Shown here in pieces: positions 24,632 through 44,522 of a DNA stretch of 64,000 nt. The stretch's first letter is position 1. Each line of letters opens with the position of its first letter. The stretch comes from Halorarum halobium (GTDB taxonomy: Archaea; Halobacteriota; Halobacteria; Halobacteriales; Haloferacaceae). Below the pieces are notes generated by a model. The model made no database searches. It was given only the letters and a program-made list of their open reading frames with translations, and had not been told where the DNA came from. The stretch is taken from the NCBI RefSeq assembly GCF_032116555.1, contig NZ_CP134949.1, positions 248,001 through 312,000 on the forward strand, written 5' to 3'. The position numbers were made by a program, and so were the translations under genes.

Positions 24632-24705
24632 GTCCAGGTGCGAGAATTGAACCCGCGTCTCAGCCTCCACAAGGCTGAAGGATAGTCCACTACCCCAACC
24701 CGGAC
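24632..24705 (-). tRNA. tRNA-His (anticodon GUG), encoded G-1
   Basis: GTCCGGGTTGGGGTAGTGGACTATCCTTCAGCCTTGTGGAGGCTGAGACGCGGGTTCAATTCTCGCACCTGGAC cloverleaf. Confidence 0.96.
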
Positions 24706-40067: not shown

Positions 40068-40310
40068 CGGCTGGTCGGCCGGCGACTGGCGGCGTGAAAA
40101 CACGCGTTCGATTGGTGAGGAAACGGGGGATACCGTCTTTCGGCTCCGACGTGGATGTGGTGGCCCGGATGAGTCGCCTCACCGGGGGCACAGCGGGCCG
40201 AATACGCCACCTGCCGTGAGACCGACTGCCGGGAACCGGTGGCGAGTGAACCGAACGGGTCCCCGTCCTCACCGCGAGAACGCGGGACCCGCCGGGCGCG
40301 ACGCCTTCAG

Positions 40311-40988
40311 CTACTGGCCTTGCCGCTGGCCGCCCTCCTCGTGGGGCTGGATGACGACGAACCCGTCCGAGCCGGTGAACTCCATCTGCATCGCTTCCCC
40401 GGAGGTCTGGCCGATCTCGAACGTCTTGTTCCGGGCGATGGACGGCGAGAGGTTCGCGCTCCACGCGACGGTCGCGTCCGGGTCCGTGCGTACCGGCGGC
40501 GTTATCACGAGCGGGTCCCCGTGCGTCGAGATCGCGACCTGACCGGGACCGGTGAGGTAAACGTTCGTCAGGCCGCCGGCCGCAGCACCCGAGAGGCTGC
40601 CGATCGTGCTGATCTCGTAGTCGACCGTGGACTCGAACGCGAGGATGTCGGTCCCGTTGATCGAGATGGACTCGTCGCGGTCGAGGTCGAGCACCTGGAC
40701 TTTCTTGCTCTGTTCTGCGACGTAGAGACGTCCGCTTCCCTCGGCTTCCATGACGGGCGTCCCCTCGCTGCTCACCGCCTCCTTCACGAAGCCGGTGATG
40801 CCACCTTCGGCCGACGACTTCCCGGTGAACGTCACGTCGCCGGTGTACGCGATCATCGACCCGGCCTTCACCATCACGGTGCCATCGAGCGGGACGTCGA
40901 GCAGCCTGTTGTTCTCTTTCCGAAACCCTGTACCGCCTTCCTCGGGCGCGTTGGAGCGCGCGAATTCCGCTAATTCCATGGGAACCAT
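40311..40988 (-). CDS. AIM24 family protein
   Basis: KAGSMIAYTG, GPGQVAISTHG, TDPDATVAWS, GQTSGE. Confidence 0.88.
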   Translation of the reverse strand: MVPMELAEFARSNAPEEGGTGFRKENNRLLDVPLDGTVMVKAGSMIAYTGDVTFTGKSSAEGGITGFVKEAVSSEGTPVMEAEGSGRLYVAEQSKKVQVLDLDRDESISINGTDILAFESTVDYEISTIGSLSGAAAGGLTNVYLTGPGQVAISTHGDPLVITPPVRTDPDATVAWSANLSPSIARNKTFEIGQTSGEAMQMEFTGSDGFVVIQPHEEGGQRQGQ

Positions 40989-41210
40989 GAGCCGAGTCGA
41001 ATTCGACTCACCCGAAAGTGGTCCGATCGTGTGATAAAATTGTCCTCGAACGGTGAGACGTCGATCCCGCGTCGTGACCCCGTCGACGTGTCGTGGACCC
41101 GTCCGGCCGGATGCCCTCCCGGGCGGCGATCACTGGCAAGCCAGTGGCCGGGAGTCGCCGGGGCGGAACTCGACGTCGGCCGGACCACGAGGACGTCCGG
41201 AACGTGAGGT

Positions 41211-41272
41211 GGTGGCTCGGAGAAAGCCTTCCTCAGAAGGGGTTCGGCGGGGCAAACACAGCATCTACTACT
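41211..41272 (-). pseudogene. degenerate duplicate of the box C/D sRNA gene
   Basis: keeps D' CCGA, C'-like CTGAGGA, D CCGA and 3' GCCACC plus downstream flank; box C, guides and TATA box diverged. Confidence 0.65.
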
Positions 41273-41380
41273 GGAACGACTGCCGGAAACGACGGCGAGT
41301 GAGACGCACGGGCTGCATCCTCAGCGCAGGTAACGCGGGTATCGTCAGGGACAGGTGAACGACTTCACGTCCAGTCCAAC

Positions 41381-41530
41381 TCACAGGATGAACAGAACTA
41401 CGAAGACGGCTATCACCAGGAGTAGGAGAAGGAGAAACCAGCGACTCCCGCTTTCATCATCCTTCTGTAGCTGTTCACCTCGGTGTTTGGAGTGAGAGTG
41501 CTGTTCATACCCTGTGTCGTCGTTCATCAT
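41381..41530 (-). CDS. 49-aa tail-anchored membrane microprotein
   Basis: MMNDDTGYEQHSHSKHRGEQLQKDDESGSRWFLLLLLLVIAVFVVLFIL; CTTTAT box at -30..-25; below the ORF-track cutoff. Confidence 0.6.
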   Translation of the reverse strand: MMNDDTGYEQHSHSKHRGEQLQKDDESGSRWFLLLLLLVIAVFVVLFIL

Positions 41531-41668
41531 CCGTTTTATTAGGTTCCTGACGGGATAAAGCTAACTTCGCACGTCTACCGAGGGGCCATCTCACCTCGAC
41601 CCGCGTTTGAAGGTTCGCTGGTTTCAGAACTGAAGCACCCTCTCGCGAGGGCTTCCGGAACGTGAGAT

Positions 41669-41732
41669 GGTGGCTCGGGTGAACTTCATCGTCACGAGGG
41701 GCTCGGCGGGGGTAACGTTCGTCATCGCCACC
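41669..41732 (-). ncRNA. box C/D guide sRNA (sR41-like) for 2'-O-methylation of 23S rRNA helix 69
   Basis: GGTGGC/GCCACC terminal stem; box C GCGATGA, guide GTTACCCCCG, D' CCGA, C' GTGACGA, D CCGA; TTTTTA box about 25 nt upstream. Confidence 0.82.
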
Positions 41733-41868
41733 GGGACGAACTCCGCAACCGAGACGTAAAAACCCCGCTTTGAGGAGCGCCGCCCTCGACGCCCGGTTCC
41801 CAGCCAGCCCGGAATACGGCCCGCACCTTCCACACGCTTTTCTACGCACCCACCCCCATCGGACAACG

Positions 41869-43050
41869 ATGACCGACGCGTACCTCGTCGGGGCCGGGCA
41901 GTCGCCGTTCGGGTCGTTCCCGGACGAGACGTACCGCTCGCTGTTCGACACGGCGTTCGACCGGGCGCTCGCGAGCGTCGACGGCGACCTCGACCCCGAC
42001 CGGATCGACGAGGCGTTCCTCGGCACGCTCGGCGTCGGCGGGAGACAGATCGGGCTGAGCGCGCCCGCCGTCACCGAGCACGTCGGCCTCCACGCGATTC
42101 CGACGACGCGTGTCGAGAACGCCTGCGCGTCCAGCGGCTACGCGCTCCGGAGCGCCGTCGCGGCCGTCCGGGCCGGGATGGCCGACCTCGTCCTCGCGGG
42201 CGGCTACGAGGTGATGACCGACACCAGCGCCGACCGGACGAAGTGGTGGCTCGGCGTCTCCGGCGAGACCGAGTGGGAGCGCCTCTCCGGGACGACGTTC
42301 GCCGGCGTCTACGCCCAGATGGCCAGCGCCCACATGAACGAGTACGGGACGACGACGGAGGACCTCTCCCGGGTCGCCGTCAAGAACCACGCCAACGGCG
42401 CCGAGAACCCCGACGCCCACCTCGGCTTCGAGTGTTCGCTGGAGGACGCCATGGACGCCCCCGCGGTCGCCGACCCGCTGAACCTCTATCACTGCTGTCC
42501 GACGACCGACGGCGCGAGCGCGGTGCTCGTCGCGAGCGGGGACGTCGCCCGGGAACTGAGCGACGACCCCGTCCGCGTCGCCGGCGTCGGCGCCGCCAGC
42601 GGCCGGGTCGGTCTGTTCCAGCGCCCCGGCCTGGCGTCGATTCCAGCGACCCGGACGGCCGCCGAGCGGGCCTACGGGGCGGCCGGCATCGACGACCCGG
42701 CCGGGGACCTCGACTTCGCGGAGGTCCACGACTGCTTCGCAATCGCCGAACTGCTCGCATACGAGGACCTCGGCTTCTGTGATCCGGGCGAGTCCGGTCG
42801 ACTGCTCCGCGAGGGGCGGACCGACCCGGACGGCGACCTCCCCGTCAACACCTCCGGCGGGCTGAAATCGAAGGGCCACCCCATCGGCGCGACCGGCACA
42901 GGACAGGCGGTCGAGGCGTTCAAGCAGCTCCGCGGCGAGGCCGCGGTGCAGGTCGCGGACCCGGTCCGCGGGCTGGCCCACAACGTCGGCGGCTCCGGCG
43001 GCGGCGTCACCGTCCACGTGTTCGAGCGGGCCGCGGAGGTGGACGCGTGA
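41869..43050 (+). CDS. acetyl-CoA acetyltransferase (archaeal thiolase)
   Basis: ENACASSG, EVHDCF, KGHPIGATG, HNVGG. Confidence 0.93.
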   Translation: MTDAYLVGAGQSPFGSFPDETYRSLFDTAFDRALASVDGDLDPDRIDEAFLGTLGVGGRQIGLSAPAVTEHVGLHAIPTTRVENACASSGYALRSAVAAVRAGMADLVLAGGYEVMTDTSADRTKWWLGVSGETEWERLSGTTFAGVYAQMASAHMNEYGTTTEDLSRVAVKNHANGAENPDAHLGFECSLEDAMDAPAVADPLNLYHCCPTTDGASAVLVASGDVARELSDDPVRVAGVGAASGRVGLFQRPGLASIPATRTAAERAYGAAGIDDPAGDLDFAEVHDCFAIAELLAYEDLGFCDPGESGRLLREGRTDPDGDLPVNTSGGLKSKGHPIGATGTGQAVEAFKQLRGEAAVQVADPVRGLAHNVGGSGGGVTVHVFERAAEVDA

Positions 43051-44522
43051 ATCCCGATGCCGACGCCGAACGCGGCATCCTCGCGGCCGGGGTCTACGTC
43101 CCCCGCGCCAGACTCCCCGCCGAGACGGTCGCGGACGCGTGGGGCAGTTTCGAGGGCCGCGGCATCGACACGACCGCCGTCCCGGCGGGCGACGAGGATG
43201 CCGTGACGATGGGCGTCGCGGCGGCGGAACGGGCGTTCGAGGCGAACACCGCGACCGGAACGTCGCCCGATTCGCCGGACTCGGCGTCGGTCGCGCCCGA
43301 CGAGGTCGGGACGCTCGCGTTCGCCACCACGACGCCGCCGCTGGAGGAGGAGCAACTCGGGCCGCGACTCGTCCGGGCGCTCGGCCTCCCGGACTCCTGC
43401 CGGACGTGGGAGCACGGCGGGAGCACCGCAGCGGGCGCGGACGCCATCCAGACCGCTCTCGACGCCGACGGCCCGGCGCTCGCGGTCGTCGCGGACGCGC
43501 CGGAGGGTGACCCGGCCGGCGAGGGCCACGCGTTCGGCGCGGGCGCCGCGGCGTTCCTCGTCGCCGACGACGCCCTCGTCCCCTGCGAGGCGGTCGCGGC
43601 CGCGACCGACGAGTCGCCCGGCATCCGGTTCCGGGAGCGCGGCGCGACCGACCTCGACTCGCTCGACGTGACCGGGTACGAGCGCGCGGCGACCCGCGAG
43701 ACGACCCGCCGGGCCATCGCCGACCTTGACGTCGACCCGGACGAAATCCGCGCCGCGGCGGTCCACCAGCCGAACGGGTCGATGCCGTCCCGCATCGCGG
43801 ACGGGGACGTCGTCCCCGCGGACGCCGTCTCGGCGGGACTGGTCGCGGACCGCGTCGGCGACGCGGGGGCGGCGACGGTTCCGATGGGCCTCGTCGAGGC
43901 GCTTTCGACCCCGGGCGACGGCCCCGTCCTCGCGGCGTTCTTCGGGAGCGGCGGGAGCGCCGTCGCGTTCTCGTTCGCCGGCGAACTCGACGCGGTGGCC
44001 GGGACCGACTTCGACGACGGCGTCGCCGTCGAGTACGCCGAGTCCCTCCGCAAGCGCGGTCGCCTCGGCGACGGCGAGGTCGCCGGGGGCGGCGCGAACG
44101 TCTCGCTGCCGAACTGGCGGCGGACGCTCGACGCCCGCTACGCGCTGACCGCCGGGCGCTGTCCCGAGTGCGGGACGCTCTCGTTCCCGGGCGAGGGCGC
44201 CTGCGGGGGCTGTCACGAGCGGGTCGAGTACGAGCGGGTGTCGCTCTCCCGGGAGGGGACCGTCGAGGCGCGGACGGTCATCGGCCAGGGCGGCGCGCCC
44301 CCGGAGTTCGTCGCCCTCCAGCGCCGCGAGGGCGACTACGCGGCGGTCCTCGTCCGACTCCCCGCGAGCGAGGCGGACGGGTCGGTGGTGCTGCCCGCCC
44401 AGGTGACCGACTGCGACCCCGACGCCGTCGAGGTGGGCGACTCGGTCCGCCGGACCGTCCGTCGGATCTACGACCAGGAGGGCGTCCCGCGGTACGGCGC
44501 GAAGTTCAAGCCGACGGGATAG
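43047..44522 (+). CDS. HMG-CoA-synthase-like domain fused to DUF35 (Zn ribbon/OB fold)
   Basis: DEDAVTMG, GAGAAAF, HQPN; C-terminal CPECG..CGGC and RYGAKF. Confidence 0.88.
   Translation: MNPDADAERGILAAGVYVPRARLPAETVADAWGSFEGRGIDTTAVPAGDEDAVTMGVAAAERAFEANTATGTSPDSPDSASVAPDEVGTLAFATTTPPLEEEQLGPRLVRALGLPDSCRTWEHGGSTAAGADAIQTALDADGPALAVVADAPEGDPAGEGHAFGAGAAAFLVADDALVPCEAVAAATDESPGIRFRERGATDLDSLDVTGYERAATRETTRRAIADLDVDPDEIRAAAVHQPNGSMPSRIADGDVVPADAVSAGLVADRVGDAGAATVPMGLVEALSTPGDGPVLAAFFGSGGSAVAFSFAGELDAVAGTDFDDGVAVEYAESLRKRGRLGDGEVAGGGANVSLPNWRRTLDARYALTAGRCPECGTLSFPGEGACGGCHERVEYERVSLSREGTVEARTVIGQGGAPPEFVALQRREGDYAAVLVRLPASEADGSVVLPAQVTDCDPDAVEVGDSVRRTVRRIYDQEGVPRYGAKFKPTG

Follow-up and report, generated by a model that had tools for sequence, protein, structure and literature searches.

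Integrons, archaeal ones included, are arrays of gene cassettes in which each cassette ends in a recombination site. Archaeal elements that integrate by means of a tyrosine recombinase also have targets other than tRNA genes; in the accessible text of PMC8371274, these are intergenic or protein-gene sites, and the terms 'snoRNA' and 'sRNA' do not occur. The available part of PMC5861418 gives three SNJ2-type sites as 'intergenic', and re-use of a single att site in tandem is described in the accessible text of PMC6563490. In bacteria, non-coding RNA genes make up 13.5% of the RNA targets of genomic islands, according to the available part of PMC13626063. The main texts of PMC12884075 and PMC13626063, as far as they are accessible, do not mention snoRNA targets, nor does the latter mention sRNA ones, while the accessible text of PMC6009581 describes duplications and a MITE-like spread of sRNAs with no mention of an integrase. 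In the literature searched, mostly papers available without subscription, nothing was found that describes a C/D guide gene serving as an att site. Since the sRNA considered here has no Rfam model, annotation-based surveys would probably label such a site as intergenic.

The analysed stretch of DNA, called the window below, comprises 64,000 nucleotides (C1:248001-312000, NZ_CP134949.1) of the 3.68-Mb genome of Halorarum halobium (G000), which has about 70% GC, encodes acidic proteins and has haloarchaea as its relatives. The window contains a gene for a box C/D sRNA (copy 1) and, next to it, a partial repeat of that gene (copy 2), the repeat being flanked by an AIM24-family gene (40311-40988) on one side and a thiolase gene (41869-43050) on the other. 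The order of the locus is the gene, a 458-bp unit with a microprotein gene, scar 1, a unit of about 1,050 bp with the AIM24 gene, and an older scar 2 (Table 1). We consider it very likely that copy 2 represents a decayed junction of the attR type and belongs to a small array of cassettes that lack an integrase and lie at the C/D sRNA gene. Elsewhere, the window holds tRNA-Pro(UGG) (494-566) and tRNA-His(GUG) (24632-24704), both on the minus strand; an Rfam scan of the window returned two tRNAs only, the sRNA having no model at gathering score. In the genome as a whole, GC skew gave no sign of the terminus position, and the 100-kb bin C1:700000-800000, with 56% GC, is a large foreign island.

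The guide RNA gene and its displaced halves

Copy 1 has the C, D', C' and D boxes and a terminal stem. The D' guide is complementary to nucleotides 1940-1949 of the organism's own 23S rRNA (10 Watson-Crick pairs), and the +5 rule directs it to G1944, which has U at +6 and +8. This spacing is the same as that of Gm1950, Psi1956 and Psi1958, and G1944 is equivalent to Gm1934/1950, the position for which a C/D guide related to Pyrococcus sR41 was predicted (PMC2584109, accessible text). Copy 1 is predicted to be the haloarchaeal box C/D sRNA that guides this 23S modification. The C/D sRNA for Gm1934 in Haloferax volcanii is known as sR-h41, a name that had no match in the literature searched.

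A gene model built from 29 relatives detected the sRNA gene in each of the 151 family genomes on which it was run (151/151), and in many relatives a T-rich run lies at a similar spacing upstream of it. The D guide was distinct in all 26 correctly parsed relatives (29 rows, from which 3 misparsed ones were dropped). The invariance of GTTACCCCC owes something to the method, as copy 1 was the query that retrieved the loci and GTTACCCCC the anchor of the comparison. In many genera, the sRNA gene directly follows a NUDIX/eIF-2B gene, and this common neighbour makes the site look ancestral. In the window, the two are about 3 kb apart, separated by a thiolase and HMG-CoA-synthase/OB-fold-like gene pair (41869-44522), at the far end of which no 5'-half scar was found.

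Table 1. Features of the sRNA locus, in window positions
Feature	Position	Strand	Remark
Scar 2 (third copy), strongly decayed: tail, arm remnant and 3' half	40145..40286	minus	
AIM24-family gene (Pfam PF01987), between scars 1 and 2	40311..40988	minus	
Scar 1 (copy 2), attR-like: core (41253-41245), displaced sRNA 3' half and flank	41188..41253	minus	
Arm X: 12-bp palindrome (2 mismatches) and 10-nt inner arm	41254..41275	minus	17.8 bits
Genus-level cassette-end tail, common to copy 3 and the scars of G001 and G002	41276..41339	minus	
Low-GC cargo of cassette 1	41351..41571		Matches C1:2605510-2605731 of G000 at 90% identity over 223 bp
49-aa microprotein gene, hydrophobic C-terminus	41381..41530	minus	No Pfam family
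3' flank of the sRNA gene, duplicated in copy 2 (part of the 25-mer)	41646..41665	minus	
Intact box C/D sRNA gene (copy 1), Gm1934/Gm1950 guide homolog, Pyrococcus sR41-like	41666..41732	minus	
Parts of copy 1	box C 41726-41719; D' guide 41716-41707; C' 41695-41689; D guide 41688-41679; D 41678-41675	minus	
9-nt core within the D' guide/D' box, putative crossover region (attB)	41704..41712	minus	5' and 3' fragments of relatives end and begin there
TATA-like promoter element of the sRNA gene	41755..41762	minus	Recognised from sequence; putative function

An earlier sequence-only reading had described a duplicated guide RNA locus whose second copy bears rewritten guides. The 25-mer from which it started is real, with 24 of 25 nucleotides identical between 41196-41220 and 41654-41678, and the similarity beyond it, on which that reading had staked its case, is significant, as the remainder alone was equalled by none of 20,000 shuffles. 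The homology was claimed to run for about 80 nt; it covers 66 nt (about 41188-41252 against 41646-41711) at 80% identity. A comparable flank duplication of about 50 bp was found in G033. Copy 2 does retain both CCGA boxes, a C'-like heptamer and the 3' stem arm, and the DNA between the copies is lower in GC as described (54.6% at 41280-41645 against 69.7% for the window), with a 49-codon ORF at 41381-41530. Box C, the first guide and the TATA box, which were said to have diverged, are absent from copy 2, and other DNA stands in their place.

That other DNA has an identity of its own: in copy 2, box C, the 5' stem arm and the promoter are replaced by arm X. The 22 nt preceding the copy 2 core agree with the gene at 5 of 22 positions and score -25.5 bits on the profile of the sRNA 5' end, against +25.7 for the intact gene. 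On a recombination-arm profile made from 33 arms of other genomes, the score of arm X is equalled by 1 of 7,357,028 genome positions, which is arm X itself, the top-scoring one. With a fit to the arm profile and none to the sRNA 5' end, the first 'rewritten guide' is the inner arm. The DNA upstream of copy 2 matches the scar ends of the congeners G001 and G002 (0 of 5,000 shuffles each) and not their genes. The second altered guide, the D guide of copy 2, agrees best among the rows compared with the working D guide of G001 (8 of 9 positions), which would fit a displaced older 3' half. Taken together, it is strongly supported that copy 2 is a leftover docking scar and not a new guide RNA. Nearby, there is a 17-nt inverted repeat (41578-41594/41662-41678), in which part of the sRNA 3' end recurs in opposite orientation 67 nt downstream; compared with shuffles, its region shows no advantage in folding (z -0.98).

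A third copy, absent from the sequence-only reading, lies farther on: 40286-40145 aligns with 41339-41196 at 101 of 147 positions with a score of 112, against a maximum of 63 over 1,180 control tiles, and none of 3,000 shuffles reached it. Its arm is unrecognisable as a palindrome. Given the position of copy 3 beyond the AIM24 gene, that gene is probably the cargo of a second cassette; no DNA-level match to it was found in two congeners. The microprotein of the first cassette has paralogs in its own genome (94% and 67%), and there are others in 2 of 200 further family genomes. All four homologs have kept the frame, and their codon differences, taken together, are synonymous in 54 cases and non-synonymous in 46, which gives mild support to the ORF being a real gene. 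A second genomic relative of the microprotein segment lies at C1:1837042-1837205 (73% DNA identity), and no sRNA scar was found beside this copy or that at C1:2605510-2605731. Since the arms in the window are mutated, the array, with its two retained cassettes, is probably an inactive relic.

Gene fragments, arms and integrase elements in relatives

Related loci were re-searched in 37 genomes, namely G040 and those 36 of the 151 in which the gene model had matched more than once. Accepted as fragments were partial matches with E<=0.002 that lay no farther than 30 kb from the gene on the same contig; 27 weaker rows were left out, as were 4 whole second copies. This left 19 3' fragments in 14 of the 151 family genomes, every one of them downstream of the gene and co-oriented with it, whereas both 5' fragments lie upstream and end in the mirror arm. 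The palindrome TCTAYTARTAGA occurs exactly, 10 nt ahead of the 9-nt core, in 11 of the 19 3' fragments; in the others it has one mismatch (2/19), is decayed (3/19) or is lacking (3/19). These sites thus show a duplicated core, a directly oriented displaced gene fragment and inverted-repeat arms, the features of an att junction.

A scan of the GTDB collection for the 5' half joined to the arm returned 16 loci in 12 genomes, all haloarchaeal. Mirror-site arrays contain up to four units of 0.6-2 kb preceding the intact gene, and a metagenome contig (L085) carries an intact X-core-X' site 24 bp past the intact gene. The spacers between gene and arm are short (24-70 bp) in several genomes. The inserts carry genes for sugar uptake, toxin-antitoxin systems, Fic, nucleotidyltransferase, Usp, CRISPR-Cas and similar functions. 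Neither a conspecific nor a syntenic congener of G000 was among the genomes compared.

BLAST searches with copy 2 or the gene gave three haloarchaeal plasmid matches and no relevant match among phages. Viral contigs contained neither the arm with the 3' half nor a relative of the integrase P0001, with one unrelated AT-rich double-arm match, and the small shares sampled of four soil-metagenome contig sets gave no informative junction. Whole second sRNA-like genes occur on plasmids (L134:6000-6065 and L135:6000-6065; NZ_CP100402.1 and NZ_CP100395.1), and L149, L150, L051, L053 and L037 represent further whole genes of this kind on plasmids or at second chromosomal sites. In several of them, the D' guide is one C shorter.

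Integrases were sought by Pfam in selected insert ORFs and by whole-genome PF00589 searches in 15 genomes. In this set, most inserts had no integrase. This includes the window cassettes, for which the nearest PF00589 match lies 400 kb away; the closest P0001 relative in G000 is 41% identical and distant from the locus. In two genomes of different families, G160 and G403, the same element lies between a 5'-half site and the intact gene. Its backbone comprises an integrase, two small genes, two resolvases and TFIIB-like, PD-(D/E)XK and HTH genes, and it ends with an intact sRNA gene of the element type. The tyrosine integrases of the two copies are 64.6% identical, with the catalytic-type residues R182, K233, H304, R307 and Y344 invariant. 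Outside the left site of G403, 2,732 bp of DNA match the sequence before the unsplit gene of its congener G455 at 89.5% identity, which places the element boundary inside the D' guide. Of the empty sites and integrase islands at the sRNA gene for which the sequence-only reading proposed to look, relatives show an unsplit site (G455, against G403) and integrase-bearing elements (G160 and G403); the window locus itself has no integrase.

Other genomes show the cassettes in further combinations. G528 has an integrase remnant (58%) between the 5'-half site and the gene. The 8-kb sugar cassette of G160 recurs, integrase-less, in G021 (85% over 7,920 bp), and G092 has a different cassette ahead of the same distal flank. 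In the site elements of G160 (L039/L040) and L094, there are CRISPR-Cas genes, type I-B-like or other, along with a restriction-modification gene. In the cassettes of G403 (L103:11049-18680) and G455 (L104:10779-19662), defence or polymorphic-toxin cargo is suggested by a cluster of HerA/Rad50/Mre11-like genes and by an Imm49 immunity gene that accompanies a large protein. The plasmid stretch L133 (NZ_CP100405.1, 12001-24697) has a broken close-clade integrase (about 54%) and a sugar cluster 66-70% identical to the 12-kb cassette of G033; no sRNA piece was found in this stretch.

A full integrase of the close clade is present in only 3 of 401 genomes (G160, G403 and G466), in each case inside an element bounded by the same arms. 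For G466, the prediction that its integrase would lie at the sRNA gene failed: the 64% homolog is 243 kb from the gene, at another target. There, a 56-kb element (C1:428786-484820; L137, L138 and L146) has the same arms, with another 9-nt core that is likewise duplicated. The sRNA copy of this element is apparently cut off after about 10 nt, and the native locus of G466 holds an element-type sRNA gene and a decayed scar. The link between arm and integrase held, and target exclusivity did not. Among 16 sister-clade loci read (34-46% identity), the palindrome with at most one mismatch was present in 6, four of them within about 2 kb (G083, G141, G209 and G318; integrases 43-45%) and two 7-9 kb off (G104 and G000), and in 10 it was absent from the stretch read. 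In G083 (L121:8143) and G209 (L144:8636), with sister integrases at 44%, the palindromic arm recurs at a junction within the Walker-A codons of an ATPase gene. In G071, the decayed site is near two unrelated integrases.

A recombination model and its alternatives

The anatomy of the locus, the conserved arm, the strict orientation of the fragments, the insertion and cassette polymorphism among congeners and the presence of one integrase element in two families are direct observations, from which we infer, by sequence comparison, recombination at the sRNA gene. In the proposed mechanism, a tyrosine integrase of the P0001 clade would bind the arms (the 12-bp palindrome and 10 nt) on either side of the 9-nt core. 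The element site X-core-X' would span 53 bp, with an odd symmetry as for a 7-bp overlap, and would recombine with the centre of the sRNA gene (B-core-B'), which would be split into B-X' and X-B'. Since the element brings its own intact sRNA gene, the methylation guide would be retained. Recombination between the internal gene and either end could then release circles with X-B' or B-X' sites, and re-insertion of a circle would rebuild an intact gene, with a 3' half left on its downstream side or a 5' half on its upstream side. Over repeated rounds, with the enzyme acting in trans, arrays would result. Such release and re-insertion of circles would explain both array polarities, the short spacers and the cassettes that lack an integrase. 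Of the two origins offered by the sequence-only reading, the att-like site marked by a mobile-element scar has strong support, and the arm, the polarity of the fragments and the integrase elements of relatives extend it.

The scarcity of integrases in the inserts raises the question of the enzyme. Elements of the dif-module and IMEX types rely on a recombinase encoded in the host chromosome. If the junctions here were also att junctions served by a XerA-like host enzyme outside the P0001 clade, it would be expected that most inserts lack an integrase and that scars are common (14/151) where the close integrase clade is rare (3/401). Against this stand the occurrence of all three full close-clade integrases within elements bounded by the same arms, the score of P0001 (57 bits against an archaeal XerA cut-off of 220) and the arm geometry, which is 22-9-22 and not the 11-6-11 of dif (PMC8371274, accessible text), so that the sites fall outside the Xer/dif modules; we regard a host enzyme as unlikely. 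The two resolvases of the element might point to a serine-recombinase mechanism, which is disfavoured by the odd 53-bp symmetry.

Two further explanations dispense with integration. Full-length sRNA duplicates and pseudogenes are known in archaea (PMC6009581, accessible text), whole second copies occur in 4 of the 37 genomes examined, and the weak local likeness between the DNA upstream of copy 2 and that upstream of the window gene (reached by 117 of 5,000 shuffles) could be read as a trace of tandem duplication followed by decay into a pseudogene, as in Pyrobaculum sRNAs. A duplication does not, however, account for a 5' half replaced at fixed spacing by an arm common to unrelated genera, for upstream DNA that fits the scar ends of congeners and not their genes, or for the single break point and single polarity of the fragments; it is largely refuted and very improbable. 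Least credible of all is the other origin proposed by the sequence-only reading, a paralogous guide that is or was retargeted under selection. Its D', C'-like and D boxes are retained, which had been taken as a hint of past selection; they are there simply because they sit in the displaced half. Box C, the 5' stem and the promoter are all missing, the D guide varies across the family and the copy 2 version resembles the ordinary one of a congener. The altered guides, searched against the rRNA operon, gave at best 8 and 7 Watson-Crick pairs, fewer than the 10 of the true guide.

Integration into a guide gene, which we prefer for copy 2, also allows a bolder and rather doubtful extension. The Gm1934 guide gene might be an active, integron-like platform for cassette capture, at which a roaming integrase inserts cassettes for toxin-antitoxin systems, defence and sugar uptake to one side of the gene or the other, while swaps of half genes reshuffle the D guide and spread C/D sRNA genes on mobile elements and plasmids. 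If this were true, it would be a route to new methylation targets.

Significance and comparison with known systems

The copy in the window is a decayed relic, and its value lies in the system behind it: a testable case of a C/D guide gene as attB, with an element that carries its own copy and with whole sRNA-like genes on plasmids. As the integrase, the arm and the core can all be named, the system is directly testable in Haloferax volcanii, and the presence of the gene in 151 of 151 family genomes means that it could be a broad landing pad for haloarchaeal genetics. For want of an Rfam model of this sRNA, annotation would probably pass over the insertion hot spot.

With regard to the RNA, the D' guide of the Haloferax volcanii Gm1934 guide likewise pairs with 23S helix 69, at a G six and eight bases before two pseudouridines (PMC2584109, accessible text). 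That account includes neither integration nor fragments, whereas here the centre of the gene is the putative recombination core and gene fragments flank cassettes. The arrays are integron-like in their cassettes of 0.5-2 kb with one or two genes, often for toxin-antitoxin systems, Fic or nucleotidyltransferase, and a terminal recombination site. Unlike integrons, they have no intI or attI beside the array (no PF00589 match within 400 kb in the window's genome), their integrase is on a separate, rare element, and their sites are better described as hybrid att sites that include half a host RNA gene than as attC hairpins. The use of a non-coding RNA gene as attB is shared with bacterial islands at tmRNA and other ncRNA genes (PMC13626063, accessible text).

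The archaeal elements that integrate into tRNA genes by a tyrosine integrase, such as those of the SNJ2 type, have in common with the present ones a tyrosine recombinase, a core within a stable RNA gene and a displaced fragment at the far end (PMC5861418 and PMC8371274, accessible texts). Tandem re-use of a single site is also common to tRNA-gene elements (PMC6563490, accessible text) and the arrays at the sRNA gene. The present elements differ in target and layout: the target is a C/D guide gene and the putative crossover lies in mid-gene. In contrast to tRNA-gene elements, the autonomous element interrupts the gene, for which it supplies a whole replacement, and arrays form on either side. 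What the locus exposes is a family of integrative elements, together with satellite cassettes, that has a C/D guide RNA gene as its site.
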